Positions 13,474-40,220 of a DNA stretch of 64,000 nucleotides are shown here, one piece after another. The stretch comes from Minisyncoccota bacterium (GTDB taxonomy: Bacteria > Patescibacteriota > Minisyncoccia > Phycocordibacterales > JBAZVT01). Position numbers and translations under genes: made by a program. The DNA lies in NCBI GenBank assembly GCA_041660745.1, contig JBAZVT010000002.1, forward strand, positions 15,210 to 79,209. The letters are read 5' to 3'. The notes below the pieces were generated by a model. It saw only the letters and a list, made by a program, of their open reading frames with translations. It did not search any database and was not told where the DNA came from. Positions within the stretch are counted from its first letter, which is position 1; each line of letters starts with the position of its first letter.

Positions 13474-13475
13474 AT

Positions 13476-14478: not shown

Positions 14479-14528
14479 GGGAATAGATTAAGCTTTATTT
14501 TTGAAGCTATTTTTCCTCTTGACTTTTT

Positions 14529-14556
14529 ATAACCTATAACCTAGGATATAGGTTAT
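14529..14556. promoter_or_regulatory. candidate CsoR operator: perfect 10-bp inverted repeat ATAACCTATA-N8-TATAGGTTAT
   Basis: Palindrome ~30 bp upstream of csoR start, overlapping likely promoter. Confidence 0.45.
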
Positions 14557-14586
14557 ATTACTTTTAACAAATTCACGAAAAACACT

Positions 14587-14859
14587 ATGCAAGAGCATAT
14601 ACTTACAACCAACAAACAAAAAGCTCAGAAATTGAGTAGGCAGGCGGCAGGCATTATGAAGAAGGTTTTGGATATGGTAGATCAGGACTCCTATTGCCCA
14701 GAAGTTATTCAACAGGTGGATGCCGTCGTCGGTTTGCTTACAAGTGCGAAGAAAGAATTGCTTAAAGGGCACCTCGGACATTGCTTGGAGCACAGAATGC
14801 ATGAGAATAAAAAACAGACTGTAGACGAGCTTTTGAAGATTTATAATCTTTCACGCTAA
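14587..14859 (+). CDS. csoR: CsoR/RcnR-family metal-sensing transcriptional repressor
   Basis: YCPEVIQQVDAV…HLGHCL (C-H-C metal ligands), 90 aa, immediately upstream of copA. Confidence 0.8.
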   Translation: MQEHILTTNKQKAQKLSRQAAGIMKKVLDMVDQDSYCPEVIQQVDAVVGLLTSAKKELLKGHLGHCLEHRMHENKKQTVDELLKIYNLSR

Positions 14860-14871
14860 ATTAAAATTAAT

Positions 14872-17172
14872 ATGGCAGTTTTCAAAATAAAAGGTATACA
14901 TTGCGCAAGCTGTGCGGCGATCATTAGTAAAAGCATTACAAAGCTCGGTGGGATAAAGAGTGTTGATGTTAATTTTGCAACTGAAAAAGCTAAAATTGAT
15001 TTTGACCAAGATCTAGTATCTTTGGATGACATGAATAATGCAATCGATAAACTCGGATATACTCTCTACCAAGATGTGCATGCAGGTAATGGTGGTCATG
15101 TTATGTCTAATGGCGATCGCATGTCTGGAATGGATCATTCTGAGCACTCGGGTATTGGTGTTTCAAAAGATGATAAGTTAAAAGAACTTCACGTACACAA
15201 AGTGAAAATCAGATTTGCGTTACCAGTATCGCTGGTGGTGTTTGCGATTATGATGTGGGATATTGTTTCTCGAACGTTTACGGGTATTCCTAAAATACCG
15301 GTATCAATGGAAATTTTTAATACTGTCTTTATGATTGTAGCTACGGTGGTTATGTTCTGGATTGGAAAACCGTTTCTTGAGGGCGTGATTAGATTCATAA
15401 AATACCGTGTCGCGAATATGGATACGCTTATTGGTATTGGTACTCTCGTCGCATATCTCTACAGTGTTTTTGTGACGCTGTTTCCCGTTGCCCGTGAGGC
15501 GCTTGGACTTCCGGAGTTCACGTATTTTGATGTAACAATTGTTGTTATAGGCTTTGTTGCTTTTGGAAAATATCTTGAAGCGCGATCAAAACTTAAGACT
15601 GGAGAAGCAATTGAAAAATTGTTGGGATTGCAGGCAAAAATAGCTCTTGTGGTGCGGGATGGAAAAGAAATAGAAATACCCGTAAGTGATGTTGTCATTG
15701 GCGATATTATAATCGTTAAGCCTGGGACAAAAATTCCTGTTGATGGAGAAATAATAGAAGGTGCGTCTAGTATAGATGAATCCATGGTTACAGGTGAGTC
15801 AATTCCTTCTGATAAGAAAGTGGGAGATCTAGTTGTAGGTTCGACCATTAACAAGCAGGGGCATTTTAAATTCAAAGCGACGCGTGTTGGTTCTGATACG
15901 CTTCTTGCTCAGATTGTAAAAATGGTTGAAGAAGCACAGGGGTCCAAAGCGCCCATTCAAGAATTGGCCGACAAAATTTCAGGAATTTTTACTCCTATTG
16001 TTCTTGGCATTGCAATTCTCACGCTGGTATTGTGGCTCACTGTTGGTACAGCGGCATTAGGTTTCACCGCAGCGTTATCGTATGGAATATTGTGTTTTGT
16101 TGGAATCTTAGTTATTGCATGTCCATGTGCTCTTGGACTCGCAACACCAACTGCAATTATTGTCGGTGTTGGTAAGGGTGCTGAAAATGGGATCTTGGTT
16201 AAAGATGCAGAAAGTTTACAGAAATTAAGTACAGTGGATACAGTTGTGATGGATAAGACCGGCACGATCACAAAAGGAAAACCAGAAGTTACTAATATTG
16301 TCGTTATTGATAAAACTCTCACGGAAACAGACGTGTTAAGATTTGCAGGAAGCATAGAGAAAATGTCAGAACACCCTCTTGCCCAAGCTATCGTTGATAG
16401 TGCACAAAGTAAAAATATTACTTTTGTTGACATAGAAGGTTTTACAGCTCTAGAAGGGGTGGGGGTTAAGGGTATGGTTGCGGGTCAGATATTGTCGGTA
16501 TGTAAACCTTCGAGCGGTGACACAAAATATACTGAGGTTAAGGAATTGCAGGGGCAGGGAAAAACTGTGGTCATTGTTGAAATGGGCGGTAAGAATATAG
16601 GCCTGATTGCTCTTAGTGACACACTGAAAAATGAGGCAAAACAGGCCATAGAGGCACTCCATAAGAAAGGGGTGCGCGTTGTTATGCTTACAGGTGACAA
16701 TACCCTTGCTGCGCATTATATAGCTAATCAAGCGGGTATAGACGAAGTAATAGCTGAAGTATTGCCTCAGGAAAAGGCTCTTAAAATAAAGGAATTGCAG
16801 GCGCAGGGAAGAGTGGTTGCTATGGCGGGAGATGGGGTCAACGATGCACCCGCCCTTGTTCAGGCTGATGTGGGAATTGCTATGGCGACAGGTGCGGATA
16901 TTGCGATTGAGTCTGCGGGAATTACACTTCTTCATGGTGATATAGGAAAATTAGTGAAGGCGATTGTGTTGTCGAAATCAACAATGCGTACTGTTAAACA
17001 AAATTTGTTTTGGGCATTTATTTATAATGTAATTGGAATACCGATTGCAGCAGGTCTCTTGTTCCCATTTTTCGGCATTGTATTAAATCCAGTGTTTGCC
17101 GGAGCGGCAATGGCATTCTCGAGTGTTTCGGTGGTAACAAACTCCCTTAGACTTAAGCTCAGATCTTTATAA
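14872..17172 (+). CDS. copA: copper-translocating P1B-type ATPase
   Basis: N-terminal HMA ([10 protein letters not shown]), CPC motif ([11 protein letters not shown]), [15 protein letters not shown]. Confidence 0.9.
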
Positions 17173-17202
17173 TAATCTAAACGTTAAATATGAATCAAAA
17201 AG

Positions 17203-17335
17203 TAACTTGTCTGTACAAACTTCAAAATTTCGGCTGCAAACTACTCATCGCTCGTCAAGAGAGTTGTCTATCTTTCCTTACGCTTTGCAGTTTTCGCTCG
17301 AAATTTTTAAGTTTGTTTCAGACATTAGATTATTA
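17203..17335. repeat. dispersed intergenic repeat, copy R1 (imperfect long hairpin)
   Basis: ~70% identical to 62731-62862; shared blocks aacttg…tctg, aaatttYggctgcaaa, ttttcgctcRaaat, agacattagatt; internal 17-nt IR caaacttcaaaatttcg/cgaaatttttaagtttg. Confidence 0.6.
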
Positions 17336-17359
17336 TAAAGCTCTTTAAAATTATAATTT

Positions 17360-18382
17360 ATGAAAACATACACATTTCATGTTCATGGTATGCACTGCGC
17401 TTCTTGTACGGTCCTTATCGAAGGAGAGTTGAAGAAGCATTCTTCGGTGCGAGATGTAAATGCGAGTCTCTCTGGGAAAACAGTAACAATTAATGGCAAT
17501 TTTGATATAACCGAACCCCAGGCACTTGTCGCTGCTCTTGGAGAAGTTATTAAACCTTTCGGGTATACACTGTCTCTTGAGCGGGAAGAAAAAAAGAAAA
17601 TCCTGTGGAAAGAATTTTACATTGCAGTTCCGATTGCACTCGCATTCATTACTCTCTTCATTGTTTTGCAAAAGACAGGAATAGTTGATATTAATCCATC
17701 ACAAATGGGGTTAGGAGCAGTGTTTGCTATTGGTTTAGTTGCCTCAGTCTCTTCGTGTATGGCAGTTGTTGGAGGATTGTTACTTTCACTTTCTGCAACA
17801 TTTGCAAAGGAAAGTAGTCGTGTTTCTTCTCATGTTCTTTTTCATGCTGGGAGAATCGTCGGGTTCTTTGCTTTAGGCGGTGTGCTTGGTGCTCTTGGTT
17901 CTGTACTACAAATAAGTTTCTGGGTTCAGGCGATAATTGGAATTGTTATTGGTGTGCTTATGGTAATACTCGGTATTAACTTGATGGAAGTATTCCCTTG
18001 GATGAAAAAATTACAACCAACATTACCAAAAGGTATTTCAAAAAAAATGTTGGGGAGTGCTAATATGATTACAGGGATTGCTCCCGTGTTAGTAGGTATA
18101 GCTACATTTTTCTTGCCTTGTGGGTTCACTCAGTCTATGCAGCTTTATGCGCTTTCAACGGGTAGTTTTTGGTCTGGGGCAATGACGATGTTTGTATTTA
18201 CGCTCGGTACATTACCGGTCCTTGCTCTGATTAGTTTTGGAGCGTTCGCTTTAGGTAAAAAACGTGCGTATTCAGGAGTATTTTTCAAGGCAATTGGTAT
18301 AATAGTAATTTCATTTGCGTTGTTTAATATAGCGAACAGCTTCGCAGTGCTAGGTGTTATTCCTTCACTATTTAGTTTTTAA
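17360..18382 (+). CDS. HMA-domain-fused polytopic membrane protein (DsbD_2/TauE-like permease family)
   Basis: N-terminal MKTYTFHVHGMHCASCTVLIEG heavy-metal-associated domain, then ~8 TM helices with LPCG motif. Confidence 0.55.
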   Translation: MKTYTFHVHGMHCASCTVLIEGELKKHSSVRDVNASLSGKTVTINGNFDITEPQALVAALGEVIKPFGYTLSLEREEKKKILWKEFYIAVPIALAFITLFIVLQKTGIVDINPSQMGLGAVFAIGLVASVSSCMAVVGGLLLSLSATFAKESSRVSSHVLFHAGRIVGFFALGGVLGALGSVLQISFWVQAIIGIVIGVLMVILGINLMEVFPWMKKLQPTLPKGISKKMLGSANMITGIAPVLVGIATFFLPCGFTQSMQLYALSTGSFWSGAMTMFVFTLGTLPVLALISFGAFALGKKRAYSGVFFKAIGIIVISFALFNIANSFAVLGVIPSLFSF

Positions 18383-18398
18383 CTTTTAAAAAATTATA

Positions 18399-18827
18399 AT
18401 GAAAACATCAATTATACTATCGGTTCTGTTAGCGGGTGGAATGATATATGGAGCATACTACCTTACGAGCACTGCACCATCAGGCTCTGCTCAAATAATC
18501 AACAATTCTGGTCCTGGTGGAAATATCGATGCTTCAAAGGCTGTCGTTGTGGATGAGAATGGTACTCAGATTATTACTATTACTGCAGGACGAGGGTATT
18601 TCCCACAATCTGTTACAGCAAAGGCGGATCTACCATCGGTAATTAGAATGGTAAGTACAAACTCTTACAGTTGCGCAGCGTTTCTAGTAATTCCTTCTCT
18701 TAAATTCCAGGGAAATTTGTCAGCGTCTGCACCAACTGATATTCCAGTTCCTGCACAGAAAGCGGGGGAAGTCATTCGTGGTACGTGTGCAATGGGAATG
18801 TATAGCTTTGCAATAAAGTTTGAATAG
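18399..18827 (+). CDS. exported hypothetical protein (possible metal-binding, copper cluster)
   Basis: Signal/TM N-term, C-terminal GTCAMGMY; co-oriented after HMA-permease. Confidence 0.4.
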   Translation: MKTSIILSVLLAGGMIYGAYYLTSTAPSGSAQIINNSGPGGNIDASKAVVVDENGTQIITITAGRGYFPQSVTAKADLPSVIRMVSTNSYSCAAFLVIPSLKFQGNLSASAPTDIPVPAQKAGEVIRGTCAMGMYSFAIKFE

Positions 18828-18852
18828 TTTCGAAAATAGTTTAAAAAGAAAA

Positions 18853-18880
18853 GCCTCGGCCGTTGTGGCCGGGGCTTTTT
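18853..18880. terminator. bidirectional Rho-independent terminator
   Basis: gcctcggcc-gttgt-ggccggggc + TTTTT. Confidence 0.8.
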
Positions 18881-18888
18881 GCAATATT

Positions 18889-19107
18889 TTATACCGGGTG
18901 ATAGGATGAACCCGGTTCTGCGCGAAGTAGCTTCGCGTAAAGTTCGCTCGAGTTATGCGGGTCCTCGGCAAACACCCACGCGATCTCTTTGGGTGTTTCG
19001 GCGCCAACGTGAGGCTTCGCCGACACTTGCCCGATAAGGACTTGTACCACTGCCGCATCGTATCCATCTCCTAAGGATGGGGACTCGAGCGGCTTTTTTA
19101 TACCCAT
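18889..19107 (-). CDS. small hypothetical protein (73 aa) in locally GC-rich segment
   Basis: MGIKKPLESPSLGDGYDAAVVQVLIGQVSAKPHVGAETPKEIAWVFAEDPHNSSELYAKLLRAEPGSSYHPV; AAGGAAAA SD-like 8 nt upstream; GC visibly ~55% vs ~38% surroundings. Confidence 0.5.
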   Translation of the reverse strand: MGIKKPLESPSLGDGYDAAVVQVLIGQVSAKPHVGAETPKEIAWVFAEDPHNSSELYAKLLRAEPGSSYHPV

Positions 19108-19174
19108 TTTCCTTTTGTGTTCATGAAGCTTGTTTTGGGCTATAATTAACATATTATAAATTTGTAAACTAACA

Positions 19175-19396
19175 ATGTCTGAAACAATCAAGAACGGCGC
19201 AGCTGCAATTTTTATCACCTCTACGGTGGTTCTTACGTTTGTATCAATTTTGGGTGTGTGGGAAGTGCTTGGTAGTGATGTTATTGGCAAATCACTCGCA
19301 ACAGGAGGGATTGTATTGTTCTCATGTATTGCATCGATAATCGCATCAAGTATCGTGGAACAAAAAGCACAAGAAACCGCTACTAATATTCAATAA
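19175..19396 (+). CDS. small membrane protein (2 TM)
   Basis: Paralogous to next gene (VWEVLGSDVIGKSL vs IWGAFDRDVVGKSF). Confidence 0.5.
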   Translation: MSETIKNGAAAIFITSTVVLTFVSILGVWEVLGSDVIGKSLATGGIVLFSCIASIIASSIVEQKAQETATNIQ

Positions 19397-19401
19397 TATC
19401 T

Positions 19402-19740
19402 ATGAAACCTGAAACATACCATTCTCTCAAAAAATCAGCTGTAATTATTTTTATTGCGTGTATAGTTATATTTGCAATCGTTACTATTGTTGCAATTTGG
19501 GGTGCATTTGATCGTGATGTTGTCGGAAAATCATTCTATTCTCTCCTCGTCATTTCAGCAGGACTTTTCTTTGTTGTGGGTGCGGGGTACGTGCGTATTG
19601 CTCTTGATGTAAAACCGGTCCTTTCTATTGCCGGTAAAACAACTGGTATGCCTACGAGTTTGAAAGTAATTTTGTGGATAGTGGGGATTATATTTCTCGT
19701 GCCAATGTTTTTCCAGATTCTTGGTAGGATGATGTATTAA
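19402..19740 (+). CDS. small membrane protein, paralog of 19175-19396
   Basis: 3-4 TM helices, shared motif. Confidence 0.5.
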   Translation: MKPETYHSLKKSAVIIFIACIVIFAIVTIVAIWGAFDRDVVGKSFYSLLVISAGLFFVVGAGYVRIALDVKPVLSIAGKTTGMPTSLKVILWIVGIIFLVPMFFQILGRMMY

Positions 19741-19759
19741 TTATTTTATGTGGAAGAAG

Positions 19760-19789
19760 AAAAAATCCCCCTTATCCGGGGGATTTTTT
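19760..19789. terminator. Rho-independent terminator
   Basis: aaaaaatccccc-ttatcc-gggggatttttt. Confidence 0.8.
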
Positions 19790-20125
19790 CTTGACTAAAT
19801 TTTTGATGTAAGTAGACTGTGCATAGATTGCATGAAATAGACGACCACACTACGTGCATGCTTACTGATTGTGGTCCGTTCGCTGTCATAATGCCAATAT
19901 GAAAAAGCGGGCGATTTGAACCGATTCACAAAATGGTTTACAGATTCCGGATTTGTAGACAGGTAACACCACCACATCATCGGTTCTTTCATATCACGGG
20001 CTGTTAGTTGCTGAAGAGAATGAGGTATGGATAGGGCAGATAATGATCAACTGCTTCTGTCTACATACTGAAAACAAAGCGACTGGCAGCTTTTTTTATA
20101 CCTAAATTTCTGCTATTCTAACAAT

Positions 20126-21013
20126 ATGGATAAACTAGAAGAAGCACGACATAAAATACAGGCGATTGAGGACAGAATGGCAGATCCTTCTTTTTGGACC
20201 AGTAGGGATGTCGCTCAGGCAACAATTAAAGAGCTTGGGGAACTGAAGGCTTTTGTTGCTGGTGGTGGTAGGGGGAAATATGATGGTGGTAATGCAATCG
20301 TTACTATTTTTTCTGGTGCCGGTGGCGACGACGCAGAAGATTTTTCTCGCATTTTACTTGAGATGTATATGAAGTATGTTGATCATAAAAAGTGGTCAAT
20401 GAATTTTATCCACCAGAATGAAAATGATCACGGTGGGTATCGCAATGTTACCTTTGAAATAAAAGGTGCTGGTGCATATGGGATGCTAAAAAATGAATCC
20501 GGCGTGCATCGTCTCGTCCGCATTTCTCCATTTAACGCCAAGAAACTCCGCCACACATCTTTTTCTCTTGTGGAGGTTATCCCAGAATTTGAAAAAACAA
20601 CTGATTTAGAAATTCCCGATAAAGATTTGAAAGTTGAATTCTCTCGATCAGGTGGCCCGGGTGGGCAAAATGTGAACAAACGAGAAACCGCAGTTCGTAT
20701 TGTGCATATTCCGACCAATCTTTCTGCACACGCAACATCAGAACGTTCTCAGGCTCAGAACAAGGATAAAGCTCTTGCTATTCTGAAAGGTAAAATTTAT
20801 AAACGCTTGGAAGAGGAGCGTGTGGCGAAAGAGAAAGGGTCTTTTATTAGTAAGACAACTGATATTGAATGGGGAAGTCAGATTCGCTCATATGTTTTTC
20901 ATCCATACAAAATGGTGAAAGACCACAGAACAGATGTTGAAACTGCAAACGTTGAGGCTGTTTTAAACGGCGAAATCGAGGAATTTATTGCAGCAGAACA
21001 AAATTTAAATTAA
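20126..21013 (+). CDS. prfB: peptide chain release factor 2 (short N-terminus, no +1 frameshift site)
   Basis: SPF motif (RISPFNAKKLRHTSF), GGQ (GGPGGQNVNK); 295 aa; no CTT TGA C frameshift motif upstream. Confidence 0.8.
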   Translation: MDKLEEARHKIQAIEDRMADPSFWTSRDVAQATIKELGELKAFVAGGGRGKYDGGNAIVTIFSGAGGDDAEDFSRILLEMYMKYVDHKKWSMNFIHQNENDHGGYRNVTFEIKGAGAYGMLKNESGVHRLVRISPFNAKKLRHTSFSLVEVIPEFEKTTDLEIPDKDLKVEFSRSGGPGGQNVNKRETAVRIVHIPTNLSAHATSERSQAQNKDKALAILKGKIYKRLEEERVAKEKGSFISKTTDIEWGSQIRSYVFHPYKMVKDHRTDVETANVEAVLNGEIEEFIAAEQNLN

Positions 21014-21071
21014 CTATCGCACAGGAGTGCGCCGTGATATAATATTCATACAGTTTTCAGGTTGACCTTCA

Positions 21072-21791
21072 TTGTCGTATGTAATACTAACAGTTAACAC
21101 TCCCATGCCCATGATATATTTTGATAAAGTAACAAAAATTTATCCTGATAATTCCGTCGCTTTGGAAGAAGTGACTTTTGCGATTGAGCCAAAAGAGTTT
21201 CTTACAGTTGTGGGGCATTCTGGCGCAGGGAAAACTACACTCATAAAGATGCTTCTTGCAGAAGAAAAGCCAACTAAAGGCGCTGTATTTTTCGAATCAA
21301 AAAATATCCACAAGTTGAAGAAAAAGGAAATTAACATGGTCCGTCGTCAGATTGGCGCTGTGTTTCAGGATTTTCGACTTTTGCCAAATAAAACTGTTTT
21401 TGAAAATATTGCTTTTGCGATGGAAGCGGCTGGCAGGACCGATGAAGAAATACAATCAGATGTTCCACATGTCTTGGAACTTGTAGATTTGGGTAATAAG
21501 ATTTGGAATTTCCCACATCAGTTATCTGGGGGTGAGAAACAAAGAGTGGCTATTGCACGTGCGATTGTCAATCAACCAGATATTTTGATTGCCGATGAAC
21601 CAACGGGAAATCTTGACCCAATTAATACCTTTGATATTGTTCAGATTTTTAAAAAAATAAACGAACTTGGTACGACAGTAATCCTCACTACACACAACAA
21701 AGGCGTCGTGGATTCTGTGGGGGGTAGGGTTATTACAATGGAAAATGGCAAAATAATACGTGACGATAAGAGCGGTAACTATGTTTTATAA
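21072..21791 (+). CDS. ftsE: cell division ABC ATPase FtsE
   Basis: Walker A GHSGAGKTT, LSGGEKQR signature, DEPTGNLD; alternative starts 21105/21111. Confidence 0.85.
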   Translation: MSYVILTVNTPMPMIYFDKVTKIYPDNSVALEEVTFAIEPKEFLTVVGHSGAGKTTLIKMLLAEEKPTKGAVFFESKNIHKLKKKEINMVRRQIGAVFQDFRLLPNKTVFENIAFAMEAAGRTDEEIQSDVPHVLELVDLGNKIWNFPHQLSGGEKQRVAIARAIVNQPDILIADEPTGNLDPINTFDIVQIFKKINELGTTVILTTHNKGVVDSVGGRVITMENGKIIRDDKSGNYVL

Positions 21792-21800
21792 TCAATCACT

Positions 21801-22727
21801 ATGTTAATCACAAAAATCAAACGAGTTGTACGGTCGGGATTTAATAGTTTTTGGAGAAATGGCTTTGTGTCTTTTGTTTCGGTTTTTGTGATGGTGGTTA
21901 CTCTTTTTGTAATTGCAGGCGTTGTCTTTTCTGGAGCGCTATTAAATTCCTCACTAGAACAGATTAGAAATAAAGTGGATATTAATGTGTATTTTGTTAC
22001 GAGTGCGGAAGAAGAAGACATTCTTGCATTCAAGAAGACTATAGATGTACTACCCCAGGTTCAGAGTTCAGAATATGTGGCAAAGGATAAGGCATTGGAT
22101 ATTTTTAAAGAAAGACATGGCAGTGATCAATCGATTCTTCAGGCGCTTGAAGAGCTTGGTGAAAATCCACTTCGTGCTCTTCTCACCATTAAAGCAAAGG
22201 ATCCTTCTCAATATGACAGCATTGCAAAATTTCTTCAAAGCGATGCTACTTTGTCACAGTCTGGTAGCAATATAGTAGACACAACAAACTATCCTGAAAA
22301 TCAGGTTGCTATCGAGAGACTTGCGAAGATAGTCAGTGCTGCGGACAAGCTTGGTTTTGCGCTCACACTTATTTTTGTAATATTATCTATTCTTGTCACG
22401 TTTAGCACTATCCAGCTTGTTATCCATTCAGCCAAGGACGAGATTGCTGTTATGCGGCTTATGGGGGCAAGTTCTAAGTATATTCGTGGTCCGTTTGTTG
22501 TTGGGGGAATTATGTATGGTTTAATCGCCGGAATTCTTACGCTCGGTCTGTTGTATCCAATAACATTATACGTTGGACCGTTCACAGAAGACTTCTTTGT
22601 CGGTATTAATTTGTTTACATACTTTATGGCTAACTTTTGGCAGCTTTGTCTCATTGTTCTGGGTTCGGGTGTAATTATCGGTTCAATATCAAGTTACATG
22701 GCGGTAAGAAAACATTTGAAAGTGTAA
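21801..22727 (+). CDS. ftsX: cell division permease FtsX
   Basis: Typical FtsX N-term (RSGFNSFWRNGFVSFVSV), 4 TM, follows ftsE. Confidence 0.85.
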   Translation: MLITKIKRVVRSGFNSFWRNGFVSFVSVFVMVVTLFVIAGVVFSGALLNSSLEQIRNKVDINVYFVTSAEEEDILAFKKTIDVLPQVQSSEYVAKDKALDIFKERHGSDQSILQALEELGENPLRALLTIKAKDPSQYDSIAKFLQSDATLSQSGSNIVDTTNYPENQVAIERLAKIVSAADKLGFALTLIFVILSILVTFSTIQLVIHSAKDEIAVMRLMGASSKYIRGPFVVGGIMYGLIAGILTLGLLYPITLYVGPFTEDFFVGINLFTYFMANFWQLCLIVLGSGVIIGSISSYMAVRKHLKV

Positions 22728-22751
22728 GAATTTAATAAAAAGTAGCATGTC

Positions 22752-22801
22752 AAAGAAAGAAAAGAAGCTCTGCCTGTAGGCGGGGCTTCTTTTCTTTCTT
22801 T
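22752..22801. terminator. Rho-independent terminator (long stem)
   Basis: aaagaaagaaaagaagc…gcttcttttctttcttt. Confidence 0.75.
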
Positions 22802-22901
22802 GTGTCCTGTGTTCGGATGAGTTTTTCATGTGGACACTCATGTAAAAGGGTATATAATTTGTTAGTACAAGTTAGCAACTTATTAGTTCGCTCTAAAAAT
22901 A

Positions 22902-24551
22902 ATGGTCAAGAAAAATCACAAGTATATTTTCGTGGTTGGTGGTGTTATGTCTGGTGTTGGCAAGGGTATAGCTTCTTCTTCTATTGGAGCCATTTTGAAA
23001 GCTCGTGGTTTTGTGGTCACAGCCATTAAAATTGATCCATACATCAACGTGGATGCGGGTACAATGAACCCTACAGAACATGGTGAAGTGTTTGTGTTGG
23101 CTGATGGTGATGAATGCGATCAGGATATGGGAAATTACGAGCGTTTCCTCAATATCACGCTCTCAAGGTCAAATTACATGACCACCGGACGTGTGTATCA
23201 GGAGGTGATTCGTCAGGAGAGAAATCTAGAGTTTAAAGGCAAGAATGTGGAGGTTGTTCCCGATATTCCTCTAGAAGTTATTCGTCGTATCAAAAAAGCT
23301 TCTGATGAAGCGCAGTCAGATATTACAATTATAGAAATTGGTGGAACTATTGGAGAATATCAAAACATCATTTTTCTTGAAGCCGCTCGTATGTTGAGGA
23401 TAGAAAACCCAGACGATGTTGCAATTGTGATGGTGAGTTATCTTCCTATACCATCGAAGATTGGAGAAATGAAAACCAAGCCGACACAGTATGCCGCTCG
23501 TACACTGAACGGTGTTGGACTTCAGGCTGATGTTATTATTGCACGTAGTCAGGTACCACTTGATCAGAAGCGAAAAGATAAGATTGCTATGTTCTGTAAT
23601 ATAAAGGCAGATCATGTTATCTCTGCACCGGACGCAGAAAGTATTTATGATATCCCTGTTAATTTTGAGCGTGATCACCTCGGTTCTATATTGTCTAACA
23701 TTTTGAAATTACCGAATGGTTTTCCAACAGATTTTTCTAAATGGAAAGCTTTTATTAGAAAGTCTAAGAACACAAAGAAAGAAGTTAAAATCGGTGTTGT
23801 GGGAAAATATTTTGACTCAGGGGACTTTGTCCTTTCGGATGTATACATATCTGTTCTTGAGGCATTAAAAATATCTGCTTATTCTGTCGGTGCAAAACCA
23901 AAAATATCGTGTATTAGTTCAAAAAAGTTTGAGGGTGCTGCCGGGAAAAAGAAGCTTGCGGAACTTGCTGGGTATGATGGTATTATCGTCCCTGGCGGTT
24001 TTGGTTCAACGGGTATAGAAGGTATTATCAATACCATACAATATTGTCGAGAGAAGAAGATTCCGTATTTTGGTCTTTGTTATGGTATGCAGCTTGCCGT
24101 TATAGAATATTCACGAAATGTTGTGGGTTGGAAAGATGCTCATACTGCCGAGATTAATCCCGCATCAAAACATGTGGTGATTGATATTATGCCAGAACAG
24201 AAAAAGATTATTGCAGAAGGCAATTACGGAGCCACAATGCGTCTCGGAGAATATCCAGCTGTTTTAAAGAAAGGATCAATTGCAGAAAAAGCATACAAAG
24301 CAACTGAGATTTCAGAACGACACCGTCATCGTTATGAAGTGAACCCTGTCTTTATCCCAGAAATAGAGAAGGCGGGTTTAGTATTTTCTGGTAGATCGCC
24401 AAGCGGTGTTCTTATGGAGGTTGCAGAACTTCCACGAGACATACATCCATTCTTTCTTGGTACCCAGTATCATCCGGAATTCAAAGCTCATCCGCTCAAC
24501 CCACATCCATTGTTTACGGAGTTCATAAAAGCAAGTTTAAAGAATAAATAA
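22902..24551 (+). CDS. pyrG: CTP synthase
   Basis: MVKKNHKYIFVVGGVMSGVGKGIASSS…; C-terminal glutamine amidotransferase (GLCYGMQ). Confidence 0.9.
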   Translation: MVKKNHKYIFVVGGVMSGVGKGIASSSIGAILKARGFVVTAIKIDPYINVDAGTMNPTEHGEVFVLADGDECDQDMGNYERFLNITLSRSNYMTTGRVYQEVIRQERNLEFKGKNVEVVPDIPLEVIRRIKKASDEAQSDITIIEIGGTIGEYQNIIFLEAARMLRIENPDDVAIVMVSYLPIPSKIGEMKTKPTQYAARTLNGVGLQADVIIARSQVPLDQKRKDKIAMFCNIKADHVISAPDAESIYDIPVNFERDHLGSILSNILKLPNGFPTDFSKWKAFIRKSKNTKKEVKIGVVGKYFDSGDFVLSDVYISVLEALKISAYSVGAKPKISCISSKKFEGAAGKKKLAELAGYDGIIVPGGFGSTGIEGIINTIQYCREKKIPYFGLCYGMQLAVIEYSRNVVGWKDAHTAEINPASKHVVIDIMPEQKKIIAEGNYGATMRLGEYPAVLKKGSIAEKAYKATEISERHRHRYEVNPVFIPEIEKAGLVFSGRSPSGVLMEVAELPRDIHPFFLGTQYHPEFKAHPLNPHPLFTEFIKASLKNK

Positions 24552-24632
24552 TTAAAAAATTCAGAAGACACCTCAGGAATGGGGTGTTTTTTGTATCTTA
24601 TTAGTCTTAGATTAGATATACTTACACATAGT

Positions 24633-25502
24633 ATGGAAGGAATATTATTGGCATTTGGAGCGATGTTGTGTTGGGGGATGGGAGATTTTTTCATTCAACG
24701 AACCACACGAAAACTTGGCGACTGGGAGGCGCTTTTCTTTATTTCAATCATTGGATTTTTTGTCGTGCTTCCGTTTGTGGTAAATGATATGCGTAGTATA
24801 GTTTCTGAGATTTCTGTGCGGGATCTGCCTGTTCTTGCTATTGCATGTGTGGCAATACTCATTGCTGCTATTTTTAATTTTGAGACCCTTAAGAAGGGGA
24901 AACTTGCAATTGTAGAACCTATTCAGTCTCTTGAAATTCCTACAGCGGGCATTCTTGCCTTTTTCTTTTTGCAAGAAACAATTTCTTTTCCGCAGTTTAC
25001 TTTTGTTGCTTTGCTCATGGTTGGGTTGATACTTGTTTCTTTTAAGGGTGGAACATTTTCTAAGAAATTGCTACTTGAAAAAGGCGTGCGCATCGGTATT
25101 ATATCGGCGATTATTATGGGAGCCGCAAATTTCTTTATTGGATGGGGAGCTCGCATTTCAAATCCATTAATTATCAATTTAATTACAGATGCTTTTATGG
25201 TTATCGGTTCTGGGATCTATCTAATATTTTCAGGTAAAGTTTCCTCTTTAGCACAAGATTTCCGAAATAATTTTAGTTTGCTCATTGCTATGGGTCTCGC
25301 AGATAAAATGGCATGGGTGGCTTTTGCCTTTGCGATGGTTCTATCACCTATGGCTGTTGCTGGTGCAATTTCTGAAAGTTATATATTGATTGCTATTGTC
25401 TTGGGTGTGGTTATTAACAAAGAAAAAATACGCCCCCATCAGGCGATTGGACTTGTCTGTGCTGTGGCAGCTGCAATAATTCTAGCGGCTACTATTGCAT
25501 AA
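24633..25502 (+). CDS. EamA/DMT-family transporter
   Basis: ~10 TM helices, two EamA-like halves; start at ATG 24633. Confidence 0.6.
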   Translation: MEGILLAFGAMLCWGMGDFFIQRTTRKLGDWEALFFISIIGFFVVLPFVVNDMRSIVSEISVRDLPVLAIACVAILIAAIFNFETLKKGKLAIVEPIQSLEIPTAGILAFFFLQETISFPQFTFVALLMVGLILVSFKGGTFSKKLLLEKGVRIGIISAIIMGAANFFIGWGARISNPLIINLITDAFMVIGSGIYLIFSGKVSSLAQDFRNNFSLLIAMGLADKMAWVAFAFAMVLSPMAVAGAISESYILIAIVLGVVINKEKIRPHQAIGLVCAVAAAIILAATIA

Positions 25503-25543
25503 GTTTGTGGTCTGCGGAGATAGAAATAGGGAATTTTTTATAA

Positions 25544-25951
25544 TTATTTTTTCTTTTTTTCCTCAAACTCCAAGCATGTAGAATTTACACAATATCTTTT
25601 TCCACCCAGTGTTGGTCCGTCATTAAAAATATGTCCTAGATGTGATCCACAAAACGCGCAGGATACTTCTATTCGTTCCATACCATTTGAAGCATCCCTT
25701 GTGTATCTCACAGCTCCTTGGATTGCTTGGCTGAAGCTTGGCCAACCAGTGCCAGAATCAAATTTTACATCAGAAGTAAAAAGGGGACTACCACACGCAC
25801 TACAGGCATACATCCCATCTCGTTTTTCGGTAAGGAGTTTACCGGTAAAAGGTTTTTCAGTACCTTTTTCACGCATGATGGCATACTGTTCTGGTGTCAG
25901 TACATGTTTCCATCCACGTTCTCTTTTGGGTATATCATTATGTTTTTTCAT
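25544..25951 (-). CDS. msrB: peptide-methionine (R)-S-oxide reductase
   Basis: Two CxxC pairs (YACSACGS…, SCAFCGSHLGHIFNDGP). Confidence 0.85.
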   Translation of the reverse strand: MKKHNDIPKRERGWKHVLTPEQYAIMREKGTEKPFTGKLLTEKRDGMYACSACGSPLFTSDVKFDSGTGWPSFSQAIQGAVRYTRDASNGMERIEVSCAFCGSHLGHIFNDGPTLGGKRYCVNSTCLEFEEKKKK

Positions 25952-26481
25952 TGTAATAATTTTGCAAATTTTTTCTGTATTTTTTCAAGTTTTGGATTTA
26001 TCACAATCTGACAATATGCTGATTCGGGATGTTTAAGAAAATATTCTTTATGTTCTGCTTCTGCTTCGTAAAACATTGTTAACGGTTTGATTTCGGTAAT
26101 TATCTTGTCCAAATTTGGGGTTTCTTTTTGAAGTTTGTGTGTGTATTTTTCAGCCTCCTTCCTTTGCTGGTCCAACGTATAATAAATAACAGAACGATAC
26201 TGAGTTCCCACGTCATTGCCTTGACGGTTAAGAGTTGTCGGATCGTGTGATGCAAAAAATACTGTCAGTAGATTACGAAAAGATATTTTCTGTGGATCGT
26301 ATTCTACCCGAACAACTTCTGCATGACCTGTATTTCCAGTGCAGACGTTTTCATAAACTGGAAAGGCTGTGGTGCCTCCGGCATATCCAGGTGTGATAGA
26401 TATAACACCTGGAACAATTTTGAAAACTGCTTCAATGCACCAGAAGCAACCTCCTCCTAAAATAACTGTTTCTGTTTTCAT
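25948..26481 (-). CDS. msrA: peptide-methionine (S)-S-oxide reductase
   Basis: GGGCFWCIEAVF active-site motif; ATGA overlap with msrB. Confidence 0.85.
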   Translation of the reverse strand: MKTETVILGGGCFWCIEAVFKIVPGVISITPGYAGGTTAFPVYENVCTGNTGHAEVVRVEYDPQKISFRNLLTVFFASHDPTTLNRQGNDVGTQYRSVIYYTLDQQRKEAEKYTHKLQKETPNLDKIITEIKPLTMFYEAEAEHKEYFLKHPESAYCQIVINPKLEKIQKKFAKLLQ

Positions 26482-26635
26482 GAACATAATATTGTGCTTT
26501 GCATATGAAACTTTGATGTGAGGGTTGAACAGGAAAAGCATTTTGACATTAAGAAATGCTAAATGTCATCTATCTGTGTTACACTGACTTTGGATTCAAA
26601 CACAACAAAAATAACCCCCTGAAAGGAGGGATACC

Positions 26636-27745
26636 GTGAGTACATTGCCAAGATTGAAGATTAAGAATTTCGAGATTGAGATACCTGTTTTTCAAGGTGG
26701 AATGGGTGTTGGAGTTTCTCTTGATCCACTTGCGGGGGCGGTTTCCTGGCGGGGTGGATTGGGAATAATTTCAAGTGCCGGTTTGCGGCATATTGTTTCC
26801 GCTCGTTGTGGAAAGGAATACGACACCTATAATGCTACGCGCGCCATGATACATTGGACCCAAATACTTGCAGGAGGCAAGCCCGTTGGTATCAATGTGA
26901 TGTGTGCTGTTGTTCGGGATTACGAGGACACCATCCGCGCTGCGATTGATGCTGGCGTAGATGCCATTATCTCTGGTGCGGGTGTGCCAATGAGCCTTCC
27001 TGAAATACAGAATCCTGGGAAGACTGCTCTTATCCCGATTGTTTCCTCGGCACGGTGTCTTGAACTTATCTGTCGCCGTTGGGCGAGGGTGGGATATCGT
27101 CCAGACGCAGTGGTACTGGAGGGTCCTCTTGCGGGAGGGCACTTGGGATTCAAATACGGTGAAATCGGGAAACTGGAACATCAGCTTGAACAGTTACTTC
27201 CTCAAGTTTTGGAGGCAGCTTCTCGGTACGGTGGGTTTCCTGTCATTGTGGCGGGTGGAATCTATACACATGAAGACATTGTCTCGTTCCTTTCACAAGG
27301 AGCGGCGGGTGTTCAAATGGGGACAAGATTCCTTGCGACTGAGGAGAGTTCTGCAACAATGGCATTCAAACAAGCTGTCGTTGCATCAACCAAGGCGGAC
27401 ATCAAGGTTCTTGCCCATCCACAAAATAGTCCGGCTTCTCCATGTGGTATGCCGTTTCGAGTTCTTACTACTTCGCCGGGGTTGCAAAAACTTCGTGCAG
27501 CTAAGTGCGATCTTGGTTTCTTGCTTAGACGTGATGCAGGTGGTCATCTCACTGCATGCCAGGCAAAGCCTGGGAATCCGCAGTCTGGTGAGTACTTGTG
27601 CATCTGCAATGCCCTTATGTCTGCGGCTGGGTATGTCCCGACCCAATTACCTGTGTATACAGTCGGCAGCAATGCTTGGCGTGTGAACAAGATTCTTTCG
27701 GTTAAGGATCTCATGGCAAGGTTGTGTGGAGATGTTCCTGAGTGA
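26636..27745 (+). CDS. nitronate monooxygenase / FabK-like FMN oxidoreductase (NMO family)
   Basis: IPVFQGGMGVGVS…VAGGIYTHEDI; GTG start with strong AAAGGAGGG SD; GC-rich relative to genome. Confidence 0.7.
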   Translation: MSTLPRLKIKNFEIEIPVFQGGMGVGVSLDPLAGAVSWRGGLGIISSAGLRHIVSARCGKEYDTYNATRAMIHWTQILAGGKPVGINVMCAVVRDYEDTIRAAIDAGVDAIISGAGVPMSLPEIQNPGKTALIPIVSSARCLELICRRWARVGYRPDAVVLEGPLAGGHLGFKYGEIGKLEHQLEQLLPQVLEAASRYGGFPVIVAGGIYTHEDIVSFLSQGAAGVQMGTRFLATEESSATMAFKQAVVASTKADIKVLAHPQNSPASPCGMPFRVLTTSPGLQKLRAAKCDLGFLLRRDAGGHLTACQAKPGNPQSGEYLCICNALMSAAGYVPTQLPVYTVGSNAWRVNKILSVKDLMARLCGDVPE

Positions 27746-27758
27746 TAGTGAAGCGAAA

Positions 27759-27796
27759 GCGACGGGTCTGCAGTAGCAGACCCGTCGCTATTTTTG
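27759..27796. terminator. Rho-independent terminator
   Basis: gcgacgggtctg-cagtag-cagacccgtcgc + TTTTT. Confidence 0.8.
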
Positions 27797-27800
27797 TATC

Positions 27801-27897
27801 TTGTCATCCTCGCGACAGCAGTAGTCGATACCACTCCCGGGTATCAGGTGCTCTAGCCACCCGCGAGCGGTGGACGACCCATTCGCGGGAATGACAG
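27801..27897. repeat. IR-flanked GC-rich element, copy A (MITE/REP-like)
   Basis: Termini ttgtcatcctcgcga … tcgcgggaatgacaga (imperfect TIR) shared with copy B at 40053-40220. Confidence 0.5.
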
Positions 27898-27932
27898 ACC
27901 TTTAGGGGCTACAAGGCTAAACCTCTGTATTT

Positions 27933-28679
27933 CTATAACTCAATCTTTGAGAATTGATACATGCCGACAAGTACCATGACGATGAGTACTCCGACAAGAA
28001 CACTAAAATTTGTTAATGATGAAAAATGTTGTACTCCTGATAGCGCACCCCGTAGTCCATCCACGCCATATGTGAGTGGGTTGGCGCGTGTAATGGCTGT
28101 TAGGAAGCCCGGAATGCCTGTGATAGGAAATAATGCCCCTGAGAGGTAGAAGAGGGGTTGAATCACAAAGTTGATGATGAGCGGGAATCCTTGCATGTCA
28201 TCCAGTCTCGCTGCGATTGCTACACCTACGGAAGAAAATATGAGTGCCATGAGAACCAAGAAAACAAATGCAAGTGGTAGGGTGTATATATTGTACACCC
28301 GGTATCCGACGAGGAAGGTGATAAAAAATACCAGTACTCCCTGGATAATTGCTACAGTTGCTCCCGCGAATATTTTGCCGATTAATATTTCAAAACGGGA
28401 GACGGGGGCAACAAAAGTTTCTTTTAAAAAACCAAATTGTTTGTCCCAAATAATTTCCACGCCAGTGAATATTGAAGTAAATAAAACTGTCATGGCAATG
28501 ATGCCTGGTGAAAGGAATTGTATGTAGTTGCCCTGTCCCGCACGTGCAAAAATGGGACTCAGTCCTAATCCAAACGCCACTAGGAAAATAAGGGGTTGAC
28601 CCAACGCGCCCACCAGACTCGCTTTTTTGCGGATAAATCTTTTGAGTTGTCTAAGCCATAAAATATAGATAGTTCTCAT
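27933..28679 (-). CDS. ABC-2 type transporter permease
   Basis: 6 TM, ABC-2 family N-term (WLRQLKRFIRKKASL). Confidence 0.75.
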   Translation of the reverse strand: MRTIYILWLRQLKRFIRKKASLVGALGQPLIFLVAFGLGLSPIFARAGQGNYIQFLSPGIIAMTVLFTSIFTGVEIIWDKQFGFLKETFVAPVSRFEILIGKIFAGATVAIIQGVLVFFITFLVGYRVYNIYTLPLAFVFLVLMALIFSSVGVAIAARLDDMQGFPLIINFVIQPLFYLSGALFPITGIPGFLTAITRANPLTYGVDGLRGALSGVQHFSSLTNFSVLVGVLIVMVLVGMYQFSKIEL

Positions 28680-28689
28680 GAGGTTTTTG

Positions 28690-29472
28690 TTACATTAGTT
28701 TACTGCTCGTCCTCATTAAATTCTTGCTGACGTTGCCAGCTTCATCTCTAATTTCGTGTCCTGTAAGTGATATGAAGGCATCCTCAAGATTTTTAGCCCC
28801 AGCTTTTGCGCGAATTTCTTCTGGGGTCCCTTGTTCAATAATTTTTCCATGATCAATAATGGCGATTCTGTCTGCATAGCGCTCCACCTCTTCCATGTGG
28901 TGGGTGGTGAAAAATACAGTGACCTTTTCTTTTTTATTCAGGTCGCGAATGTAGTTCCAAATATGATTTCTCGTCTGTGGGTCCAGTCCGATTGTGGGTT
29001 CGTCTAAAAACAATACTTTCGGTAAATGAAGTAGTCCGCGAGCTATTTCTAAACGGCGTTTCATTCCTCCGGAAAAATTTTTTACAAAAGCATCCTTTCT
29101 ATCAGTCAGTTCAACAAGTGCCAAAAGGGTATTGATACGCTCTTTGTAAGAACCTTTCGGTAATCCATAGAGAATTGCATGTAATTGCATGTTCTCAAAT
29201 GCTGTTAGTTCGTTGTCGAGGCTTGGATCTTGGAAAACAATACCAAACGATTTTCGGGTTTTGTGTGGGTCTTCAGTTACATTGTGTCCATCCAAACAAA
29301 TCTCTCCAGAGGTTGGATGTGAGAGCGTGGTGAGCATTTTTATTGTTGTGGTTTTACCTGCACCGTTGGGTCCGAGGAACGCGAAAATTTCTCCTTGTTT
29401 AACGCGAAGGGAAATATTATCAACGGCGGTAAAATTTCCAAATTTTTTTGTAACGTTTTTTATCTCAATCAT
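28690..29472 (-). CDS. ABC transporter ATP-binding protein
   Basis: Walker A GPNGAGKTT, FSGGMKRRLEIA signature, LDEPT; start at internal ATG (MIEIKNVTKKF). Confidence 0.8.
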   Translation of the reverse strand: MIEIKNVTKKFGNFTAVDNISLRVKQGEIFAFLGPNGAGKTTTIKMLTTLSHPTSGEICLDGHNVTEDPHKTRKSFGIVFQDPSLDNELTAFENMQLHAILYGLPKGSYKERINTLLALVELTDRKDAFVKNFSGGMKRRLEIARGLLHLPKVLFLDEPTIGLDPQTRNHIWNYIRDLNKKEKVTVFFTTHHMEEVERYADRIAIIDHGKIIEQGTPEEIRAKAGAKNLEDAFISLTGHEIRDEAGNVSKNLMRTSSKLM

Positions 29473-29581
29473 GAAAAGAATTATATCAACGAGGGTATGT
29501 GATAAATATGAACGATTTGTATTCCGAGGACCACCTTCGGTATTTAGCCGAAGGCAGTCCTCGAAACACAATATTTTTTGA

Positions 29582-29630
29582 ATCCCTGGGTTAAACCTCA
29601 GGCAACTTGCCTGAGGTTTAACCTAGGGAT
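29582..29630. promoter_or_regulatory. 49-bp near-perfect palindrome (24-bp arms) between ABC operon start and lexA end
   Basis: atccctgggttaaacctcaggcaa-c-ttgcctgaggtttaacctagggat. Confidence 0.4.
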
Positions 29631-29637
29631 ACTTTTA

Positions 29638-30207
29638 TTAATACTTCCTGATCACTCCCTTAACAATCGCTGCGATTTTGAGTTCTTCAGTAGGGTAAAT
29701 TGGTTTGTAGTTTTTGTTGGCAGGTTGTAGGTATACGAGTGTGCCTTTCTTGCGGTAATATTTCATTGTCCAACCCCCGTCTACTTCTGCGATAACAATA
29801 TCCATGTCCTTGGGTTCACCTTTGTTGCGCTCTACGATGACCAAATCACCCTCCTTTATACCTTCTTCTATCATTGAGTCGCCTTTGACTTCTAGGAGGT
29901 ATGACGAGTCCTTGTGCTTCACGAGGTAGTCATCAATACTGAGTGTGTCCGTAAGTTCTTCTTCTGTTGCAGAGGGGATTCCAGCTTCCACAAGTCCGAG
30001 AAGGGGAATTTCATCCAGTCGGTCTGCGGGGATGAGTTTACCTTTTGCATCCTTGGTTACCACACCCATCTCCACGAGTTTGTTCACGAGTTTGTACGCA
30101 GCGTTCTTTGACTTGAAACCGACGAGGTTCATGATCTCTTGATACCCGGGCATGCGCTTGTGTGTGCGGTAAAAAGAAATAATTTTATTTTTGTAGGAAT
30201 CGAACAT
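29638..30207 (-). CDS. lexA: LexA repressor (S24 peptidase)
   Basis: N-terminal wHTH, C-terminal KGDSM…K catalytic dyad, AG cleavage region (VEAG). Confidence 0.85.
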   Translation of the reverse strand: MFDSYKNKIISFYRTHKRMPGYQEIMNLVGFKSKNAAYKLVNKLVEMGVVTKDAKGKLIPADRLDEIPLLGLVEAGIPSATEEELTDTLSIDDYLVKHKDSSYLLEVKGDSMIEEGIKEGDLVIVERNKGEPKDMDIVIAEVDGGWTMKYYRKKGTLVYLQPANKNYKPIYPTEELKIAAIVKGVIRKY

Positions 30208-30215
30208 TGTATTTT

Positions 30216-30425
30216 TTATAGTATAAAGGAGGAAACCGTACTAAATGTTTTCAAGAACCAGTGTGATTGGGCTCGGGTGGGGAGCTCACTCAAACGAGAG
30301 CGGAGAAACTTGTGTCGACGGGCTTCTTTTTCATACGAGAGACCCTTGATGATTTTCATATCAATAAGGTCATTCAATTTCTGCAATTCGCACGATATTG
30401 TTTTGTGTAATGTTTGGCTGCTCAT
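30216..30425 (-). CDS. small ORF upstream of and co-directional with lexA (69 aa)
   Basis: Stop 9 nt before lexA ATG (possible translational coupling; lexA lacks SD). Confidence 0.35.
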   Translation of the reverse strand: MSSQTLHKTISCELQKLNDLIDMKIIKGLSYEKEARRHKFLRSRLSELPTRAQSHWFLKTFSTVSSFIL

Positions 30426-30473
30426 ATGTGTTAATAATTATTCTTGCACTAAAATTTATATACACATAGTATA

Positions 30474-30491
30474 GGTGAACAAGTGTTCACC
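30474..30491. promoter_or_regulatory. LexA (Cheo-type) box GGTGAAC-AAGT-GTTCACC
   Basis: GAAC-N4-GTTC core with 7-bp perfect arms, ~50 bp upstream of small-ORF/lexA unit. Confidence 0.6.
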
Positions 30492-30673
30492 AGTCAACAG
30501 TGGATAACCCACTGCAACACAGGGGAGATGAAATCGCAATCCTATAGGCAAAAATATATTGGAAAAACATAGTTTTTTAGGATGAAATTGATTCACAGAA
30601 CTCTCACGGGGATATTGATAATTTTGGCATAAAAAGTAGTTGATAAAACTATTGTTAATTAATAAAAAATAAT

Positions 30674-40015: not shown

Positions 40016-40043
40016 AAAACCACTCGCCTAAGCGAGTGGTTTT
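40016..40043. terminator. Rho-independent terminator
   Basis: aaaaccactcgc-ctaa-gcgagtggtttt. Confidence 0.8.
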
Positions 40044-40052: not shown

Positions 40053-40220
40053 TTGTCATCCTCGCGTATGCGCGTGATTCCGAATACTTGAAGGAATTAC
40101 GAACCGGACTGAACGAAGGTGAAGGAGGTGTGCCCAGAGAATCCGCTAGTATGCGGATATCTGTGGGGATCCAGGGCAAATTAAGTGGGTCTGGATTCCC
40201 ATTTTCATGGGAATGACAGA
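40053..40220. repeat. IR-flanked structured element, copy B (MITE/REP-like)
   Basis: Termini ttgtcatcctcgcg … catgggaatgacaga; multiple internal hairpins; GC-rich. Confidence 0.5.

Follow-up and report, generated by a model that had tools for sequence, protein, structure and literature searches.

CGTC-tagged REPs were defined by Di Nocera, De Gregorio and Rocco in 2013, with the tag often reading TGTC (PMC3733652). In the CGTC-1 family, which includes dRS3 of Neisseria and RPE-6 of Rickettsia (R. conorii), an 8-bp stem opening with A-T and T-A carries a 4-nt loop and is followed by a CCA tail, and the units mostly form HH dimers, in which the tags are on the outside, with spacers of 20–100 bp (PMC3733652). 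The family is found between convergent or co-directional ORFs, near their 3′ ends, and many tagged REPs have been argued to be transcribed on the basis of this placement and of the presence of G.T pairs (Di Nocera et al., PMC3733652). As of 2013, CGTC-tagged REPs were without a dedicated transposase; they were reported in five phyla, mostly in Alphaproteobacteria, with Patescibacteria being unmentioned in the text of the survey (PMC3733652).

Two systems described in Neisseria are built from closely similar units. The NIMEs of Bentley et al. (2007) have the structure dRS3 - RS - dRS3, in which inverted 20-bp ATTCCC-N8-GGGAAT repeats surround a variable segment of 50–150 bp, and are usually arrayed (PMC1797815). 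More recently, Chenal et al. (2025) described the NTS, CGTCATTCCCGCGMAVGCGGGAATCYRG (consensus defined with at most 1 mismatch), a longer, oriented motif; the small GIY-YIG nuclease SsnA binds and cleaves it exclusively in single-stranded form, and on one of the two strands only (PMC11893778). The C directly after the palindrome is critical for Ssn binding and the tag region is critical for cutting; Ssn-related motifs (SRMs) and ssn genes are widespread, and the NTS-ssnA-NTS layout has been described as IS-like (PMC11893778).

Here, we compare these systems with 2 short elements, copy 1 and copy 2, located in a 64-kb window (the whole stretch of DNA that was analysed, 64,000 nucleotides) from a Paceibacterota genome. 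In all probability, both are degenerate HH dimers of CGTC-1-type TGTC/CGTC-tagged REPs in a Paceibacterota host, most likely persisting as inert relics.

Two GC-rich elements with common inverted ends

The elements, as we read them, and the hairpins that precede them are as follows:

27801–27898, no strand assigned: copy 1, TGTC-tagged REP units in a decayed dimer with the tags outward (HH), forming a single long imperfect palindrome, 60% GC
40053–40220, no strand assigned: copy 2, an HH dimer or small mosaic, intact in its right unit and decayed in its left one, whose interior hairpins have ATTCC/GGAAT-like stems, 49% GC
27758–27789, plus strand: terminator-like hairpin of the NMO gene, called by a terminator scan; copy 1 begins 11 nt further on
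40020–40039, plus strand: hairpin and TTTT 3′ of tspO, CCACTCGC-CTAA-GCGAGTGG, recognised by eye and uncalled by the scan; copy 2 begins 13 nt further on

The sequence-only reading had reported 2 GC-rich elements with shared, imperfectly inverted ends. This is confirmed: the two copies agree exactly over 14 nt at the 5′ end, TTGTCATCCTCGCG, and over 12 nt at the 3′ end, GGGAATGACAGA. The length proposed for copy 2 (168 nt) agrees with direct reading of the sequence, whereas copy 1 is 98 nt rather than 97 bp long, the proposed end having fallen one base short. The ends of each element form an imperfect inverted repeat (TGTCATCCTCGCG versus CGCGGGAATGACA), the exceptions to regular pairing being a single C/A mismatch and a single T.G. 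In the window, TTGTCATCCTCGCG occurs exactly twice, both times on the plus strand, against 0.18 occurrences expected even with 2 mismatches, and GGGAATGACAGA occurs exactly twice, on the plus strand, at the matching 3′ ends. Coincidence as the source of the shared termini is excluded, because other genomes yielded the identical pair of termini at more than 200 loci. By contrast, the proposal that the 2 elements are copies of one and the same element has to be abandoned: pairwise alignment shows their interiors to be unrelated, with no alignment extending past the termini, so that only the unit-derived ends are common to them.

The GC content of copy 1 (0.60) and copy 2 (0.49) compares with 0.397 for the window. 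When folded as RNA, both elements reach z-scores of −3.8 to −4.9 relative to shuffles on either strand, and folding of copy 1 as DNA gives z-scores of −1.9 for the plus strand and −4.2 for the minus strand.

Both elements occupy gaps between convergent genes, copy 1 between those for NMO (plus strand) and an ABC2 permease (minus strand), and copy 2 between those for TspO (plus strand) and a pseudouridine synthase (minus strand), with 35 nt and 17 nt, respectively, separating the minus-strand stop codon from the element. The placement of the elements directly after the terminators of the NMO and tspO genes, pointed out in the initial reading, was borne out, at 11 and 13 nt beyond the respective hairpins. 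The hairpin 3′ of tspO has A-rich and T-rich flanks and could thus act bidirectionally. A T-run 3′ of the element is absent for both copies, and a promoter scan of the plus strand around the 2 elements called none. Intergenic placement between convergent ORFs, near their 3′ ends, which is characteristic of CGTC-1, was found for both.

Repeat units within the elements

The unit from which the family is built is a 28-nt oriented hairpin, TGTC-ATTCCCGC-GAAN-GCGGGAAT-CCAG, consisting of the tag, an 8-bp stem, a 4-nt loop and a CCA(G) tail. It is of the CGTC-1 type, to which dRS3/NTS, RPE-6 and the SRM all belong, and is the motif recognised by Ssn. Since relatives of the window elements have an architecture of 2 inverted 28-nt units, the apparent terminal inverted repeats in the window are the outer halves of 2 units. 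The assignment to a REP-type family, one of the options raised from the letters alone, thus proved well founded: the termini correspond to the tag and 5′ stem arm of a known REP unit, in inverted-dimer form. The following units and hairpins were distinguished:

27802–27814, plus strand: left half unit of copy 1, TGTC and the 5′ stem arm ATCCTCGCG, by comparison with the unit consensus
27860–27896, minus strand: right unit of copy 1, loop-expanded or decayed, TGTCATTCCCGCGAA[17 nt]GCGGG; weak match, 6.4 bits, local E 0.05
40054–40082, plus strand: left unit of copy 2, decayed, TGTCATCCTCGCGTATGCGcGtGATtCC; weak match, 5.0 bits, local E 0.18
40074–40100, no strand assigned: unit-like interior hairpin of copy 2, GTGATTCC-N11-GGAATTAC
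40139–40174, no strand assigned: interior hairpin of copy 2, GAATCCGC-TAGTAT-GCGGATATC, then GGGGATCCAG
40191–40218, minus strand: right unit of copy 2, the sole intact unit in the window, TGTC-ATTCCCAT-GAAA-ATGGGAAT-CCAG; 8-bp stem, 4-nt loop, CCA tail

The TGTC tag is outermost in all 4 termini (27802, 27896 on the minus strand, 40054, and 40218 on the minus strand). A covariance model of the unit yielded one significant match in the window, namely, the right unit of copy 2 (TGTCATTCCCATGAAAATGGGAATCCAG, 39.3 bits, E 5.5e-8 for the whole window), which carries 2 compensatory pair changes with respect to the unit consensus and, as single-stranded DNA, folds at −9.0 kcal/mol (z −4.0). Within this unit, positions 40195–40214 correspond to the dRS3 consensus ATTCCC-N8-GGGAAT, the sole exact instance found in the window. 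The stem, loop and tail of CGTC-1 are thus fully fitted by the unit at 40191–40218 (minus strand) and not by the remaining 3 of the 4 termini, which comprise only the tag and 5′ arm and score approximately 3–6 bits with the whole-unit model, each being non-significant alone.

The 3′ arm of the left unit of copy 1 is unrecognisable, with CGGGTATCAGG, approximately 23 nt further inward, being a possible candidate, and the right unit, which can also be written as CCCGCGAA[17]GCGGG, retains a stem of only CCCGCG/CGCGGG. In copy 2, positions 40053–40072 (TTGTCATCCTCGCGTATGCG), that is, the first 20 nt of the element, covering the first 19 nt of its left unit, are identical to intact units elsewhere, such as that of locus L256. 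The interior GGGGATCCAG of the same copy equals the 3′ arm and tail of a left-type unit and lies 16 nt from the facing CTGGATTCCC of the right unit. Most relatives keep recognisable units at both ends, and expanded loops are restricted to a minority of family members; the window copies represent the degenerate end of the family range.

Distribution of the family in genomes and metagenomes

When one genome per species was scanned for the two termini at a distance of 70–130 nt, at least 120 matches were returned, compared with approximately 8 expected by chance according to a rough estimate. The taxa among the matches listed include Gracilibacteria, Parcubacteria, Saccharibacteria, Liptonbacteria, Rickettsia, Tisiphia, Sphingomonadales, Nitrospirales, Planctomycetota, Bacteroidota, Vampirovibrionales, Zixibacteria and others, and nearly all of the listed matches have the form TGTCATTCCCGCGAAAGCGGGAATCCAG - variable spacer - CTGGATTCCCGC..GCGGGAATGACA. 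In the metagenome scan, the exact window termini were found in 83 loci, mostly of 35–50% GC and without the source contig among them, bringing the relatives with identical ends in the genome and metagenome sets to more than 200 in total. Median dimer lengths were 109 nt for the genome matches and 85.5 nt for the metagenome loci.

The alignment of 91 distinct units, which was drawn from loci selected by the termini pattern and hence over-represents the window-like subtype, has 97% of its stem cells paired and displays compensatory double changes in 4 of the 8 pairs, with an observed covariation score that no shuffle reached. An asymmetric subtype, recurrent across low-GC genomes, combines a left stem ATCCTCGC/GCGGGGAT with a right stem ATTCCCGC/GCGGGAAT and sometimes encloses a GIY-YIG gene.

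Searches of viral contigs with the 14-mer TTGTCATCCTCGCG yielded mostly chance matches in coding sequence; a few contigs, which provided the first lead to the unit, contain multi-copy solo hairpins, TTGTCATCCTCGCG(AAA/CAC)GCGGGGATCCATC. In viral contigs, the pattern CCCATT-N3-5-GGGAATGACAGA gave 4 chance matches only, and two-termini patterns with a spacing of 1–61 or 117–177 nt gave no match. One contig classed as viral (L080) carries at least 5 solo units TTGTCATCCTCGCG..GCGGGGATCCATC on one strand within 7 kb (5251–12210), each followed by CT-rich low-complexity sequence, in a tandem-like arrangement unlike that of the dimers. A dimer with the same termini and with nested look-alike hairpins is located at positions 5988–6101 of a GC-rich phage-like contig (L126), beyond the end of a 723-aa ORF and before an ORF that begins at 6127; thus, the family is also present in contigs classed as viral.

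In unrelated genomes, the right-hand REP unit repeatedly carries a second hairpin repeat, approximately GCCTGYCCYCG-N8-12-CGGGGG, within its loop (ATTCCCGATCAGGTCGGGAAT versus ATTCCCGATCAGAGCCTGCCCTCGACCAGATCGGGGGTCGGGAAT). It was observed at L262:1568–1689, L325:1016–1125, L327 (on the minus strand, within plus-strand positions 3351–3438), L148, L155 and L200. The loops of REP units seem to be a favoured site for nested insertions, and repeated insertion of nested hairpins into them would hint at an insertion mechanism.

Comparison with CGTC-1, NIME, NTS/SRM and REPIN repeats

Among the described systems, CGTC-1 shares with the window elements the TGTC variant of the tag, the HH dimers, the position in convergent-ORF gaps by the 3′ ends of genes and the G.T stem pairs; in the intact unit, the likeness extends to the 8-bp stem opening with A-T and T-A, the 4-nt loop and the CCA tail. 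The differences are that only 1 of the 4 units is complete, that the intact stem reads CCCAT/ATGGG rather than CCCGC/GCGGG, that copy 2, with approximately 110 nt between its outer half units, is longer than usual, and that the host belongs to Paceibacterota. With the NIMEs, the elements have in common the inverted repeats around a variable segment, the GC peaks at the repeats and the adjoining variable genes, copy 2 resembling a short multi-hairpin mosaic; unlike in NIMEs, the window units are single and isolated, do not form arrays, and include one exact dRS3 consensus (40195–40214).

The intact window unit further resembles the NTS and SRM motifs in its GTCAT tag, its ATTCCC...GGGAAT palindrome and the C directly after the palindrome, and a contig carrying the window subtype (L254) displays the corresponding unit-ssn-unit layout. 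Nevertheless, no window unit matched the NTS consensus CGTCATTCCCGCGMAVGCGGGAATCYRG with at most 1 mismatch, the best one, TGTCATTCCCATGAAAATGGGAATCCAG, having 5 mismatches, 4 of which constitute 2 compensatory pairs. The SRM pattern HGTCWYN(0-2)YYVSBRHN(0-5)WNVSBRGN(0-2)RNCYNB had no matches on either strand of the window; it recovered 224 units in 873 kb of related loci. Collectively, the window elements fall outside the strict NTS and SRM patterns but agree with CGTC-1 as defined, through a single unit as well as through their arrangement and placement.

REPINs, which are doublets of GTAG REPs associated with RAYT tyrosine transposases, provide a parallel in that 2 inverted hairpins form the replicating unit, no target duplication is produced, and a single domesticated enzyme gene is found between the same units. 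The GTAG tag and Y1 transposase that characterise them were not found here: the tag is TGTC/CGTC (TGTC in the window), the gene enclosed in related loci encodes a GIY-YIG nuclease, and mobilisation of the family considered here is only inferred.

Association with GIY-YIG genes

The clearest example of an ssn gene enclosed by repeats of the window subtype is locus L254, in which a unit (182–210), a gene for a 96-aa GIY-YIG protein (226–516) and an inverted unit (520–548) follow each other, with the tags pointing outward around the gene. In this metagenome contig of 39% GC (L254:1–760), 2 dimers and a half unit precede the unit - GIY-YIG - inverted unit arrangement, which is followed by more dimers. 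A near-identical copy, L269, was found in another sample, and GIY-YIG genes between or beside units are also present in L185, L215 and L283. The proteins from the unit-associated loci match PF01541 with 61–63 bits. The dimer-adjacent gene of L283 (5097–5360) contains an in-frame stop codon and is hence a decaying ssn copy. Identical ends are thus seen in related loci both with and without an enclosed ssn gene. No GIY-YIG gene was found in the 64-kb window by motif search and tblastn.

In Neisseria, Ssn binds the unit hairpin on one strand and nicks just 5′ of the tag (PMC11893778). In the other genomes seen here, unit-ssn-unit resembles a tiny insertion sequence, and the short dimers have the same ends minus the gene. 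By analogy with REPINs and RAYTs, we tentatively suggest that the dimers may be non-autonomous derivatives that are spread or maintained in trans by Ssn through single-stranded DNA, a possibility that we hold somewhat short of probable. Such Ssn-dependent spread through single-stranded DNA would explain why target duplications are lacking. As for the window elements themselves, they are most likely inert relics, given that the window holds no ssn gene and that the inner half has been lost in 3 of the 4 units. Their sole present effect is likely to be the formation of stable hairpins in the 3′ UTRs of the minus-strand genes for the ABC2 permease and the pseudouridine synthase, the transcripts of which would enter the elements before reaching the shared terminator.

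Variability of the two loci

A relative with 94% identity in CTP synthase (L331) is syntenic with window positions 12485–30530. It lacks the following segment:

26564–27929, plus strand: 1.37-kb segment, absent from L331, in which copy 1 is preceded by the NMO gene and the terminator of that gene; 50% GC against 40% in the window

At this place, L331 has 80 nt with a plain terminator, and no REP unit was found in its 21.6 kb. Copy 1 thus forms part of an indel that distinguishes close relatives; the only orthologous comparison obtained shows this 1.37-kb indel, rather than a clean insertion of copy 1. At the very start of the segment stands TGTCATC, in outward orientation, which equals the first 7 nt of the REP unit and is either left over from a unit or there by chance; TGTCATC is present in the window at the chance rate (8 observed against 8.3 expected). 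Most likely, copy 1 came in with an NMO cassette acquired horizontally, either on it or beside it. When co-transfer with the NMO gene was tested in homologues at 63% identity, no such element was found downstream; in these homologues, the next gene follows within approximately 40 nt, leaving no room for an element. The same comparison with L331 revealed a second small indel, 24541–25563, containing an EamA transporter gene (24579–25502), with no REP unit at its borders.

Homology to L331 stops at 35285, right after tRNA-Gln, and thus the block that ends with copy 2 is variable as well. Between 35169 and 39998, the tRNA-Gln gene is followed by genes for a type ISP restriction-modification enzyme, a Bro-N protein and TspO, with a GC content of 36%, and copy 2 is at the far end. 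The loss of homology right after the tRNA suggests that an island has integrated at the tRNA-Gln gene or beside it. A search for an orthologous empty site of copy 2 found none: the best relative by pseudouridine synthase (62% identity) is not syntenic.

Two other regions of the window displayed repeats of their own. Between 13190 and 14480, tRNA genes on both strands form a cluster of 5 (Met, Asp, Met, Thr, Thr), in an order rearranged with respect to L331; close by are near-exact duplicates of tRNA 3′ ends (13247–13276 and 13454–13483; 14316–14348 and 14446–14478), as left by integrating elements. Between 5982 and 7978, downstream of pilin-like (N_methyl) genes, a 266-nt repeat is present 3 times (83% and 61% identity) with spacings of 946 and 785 nt; these are probably paralogous genes or domains.

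Alternative interpretations

The sequence-only reading had also offered a MITE or a structured-RNA element. A classical MITE, that is, a deletion derivative of an IS with a DDE transposase, mobilised by a cut-and-paste mechanism acting on its terminal inverted repeats, would account for the 13-nt terminal inverted repeats, small size, intergenic position and variable interiors. However, target-site duplications are absent from both copy 1 and copy 2, and flanking direct repeats (k=2–8) of 216 distinct dimers of the family are no more frequent than in permuted controls; furthermore, the ends are themselves self-folding hairpin units, and the gene enclosed by such ends encodes a 96-aa GIY-YIG nuclease and no transposase. 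We thus regard a MITE as highly improbable. Equally remote is the interpretation of the elements as 2 small structured non-coding RNA genes with a common closing stem. Their folding z-scores (−3.8 to −4.9) are strong, and the T.G position of the closing stem would be a G.U wobble in plus-strand RNA, but the near-equal folding of both strands is what is expected of a DNA palindrome. The interiors are related neither to each other nor to the family, and each element comes after a terminator without a promoter-like site on the plus strand. At gathering thresholds, Rfam identified only tRNAs in the window, and local scans around both copies returned noise even at E≤10. The elements may nevertheless be transcribed as part of a neighbouring 3′ UTR. 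Other structured elements were considered and rejected: integron attC sites, for want of RYYYAAC/GTTRRRY cores; retron msr/msd, there being no reverse transcriptase nearby; and self-cleaving ribozymes, with no Rfam match.

Two further interpretations concern what the elements do or mark. As exapted 3′ UTR RNA elements of the minus-strand genes, they would be putative stabilisers of mRNA 3′ ends or helpers of termination, a role compatible with REP origin. Each element lies between the minus-strand stop codon and the hairpin shared with the convergent gene, and the same placement and G.T pairs were used by Di Nocera et al. to argue for transcription of tagged REPs (PMC3733652). The closest relative, on the other hand, has a plain terminator in place of copy 1, and neither element is followed by a T-run; we consider such a role unlikely, if less so than the other alternatives weighed here. 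Less likely still is that the elements are border scars of cassette exchange, with REP units having served as recombination or nuclease sites for insertion of the NMO and RM-Bro-TspO cassettes. The idea parallels proposals for NTS-gene-NTS and NIME arrays of Neisseria, and draws on the absence from L331 of exactly the GC-richer segment that holds the NMO gene and copy 1 and starts with TGTCATC, and on copy 2 closing the post-tRNA-Gln block that has no counterpart in L331. Against it, there are only 2 cases, TGTCATC is no more frequent than expected by chance and was spotted at the junction only post hoc, the right junction lies 31 nt past the dimer of copy 1, and the element is missing downstream of the NMO homologues mentioned above. 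The broader claim that tagged-REP dimers mark the seams of recently acquired cassettes in this Paceibacterota lineage is, if anything, slightly more doubtful. If true, Ssn and REPs would constitute a device for cassette capture and exchange in ultra-small CPR bacteria, extending the NTS-gene-NTS idea from Neisseria to a distant phylum. The reading that we favour for both elements remains that of degenerate HH dimers of the CGTC-1 type.

Implications

Taken alone, the result for the window adds little: it places 2 degenerate instances of a described and very widespread repeat family in Paceibacterota. For annotation, both stretches should be masked as REP-type repeats and not treated as small RNA genes or spurious ORFs. 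At the level of the family, TGTC/CGTC-tagged dimers occur in many phyla, including several groups of Patescibacteria, beyond the five phyla of Di Nocera et al. (PMC3733652), and the asymmetric subtype, which is sometimes arranged around a GIY-YIG gene, provides context for how Ssn-associated repeats spread.
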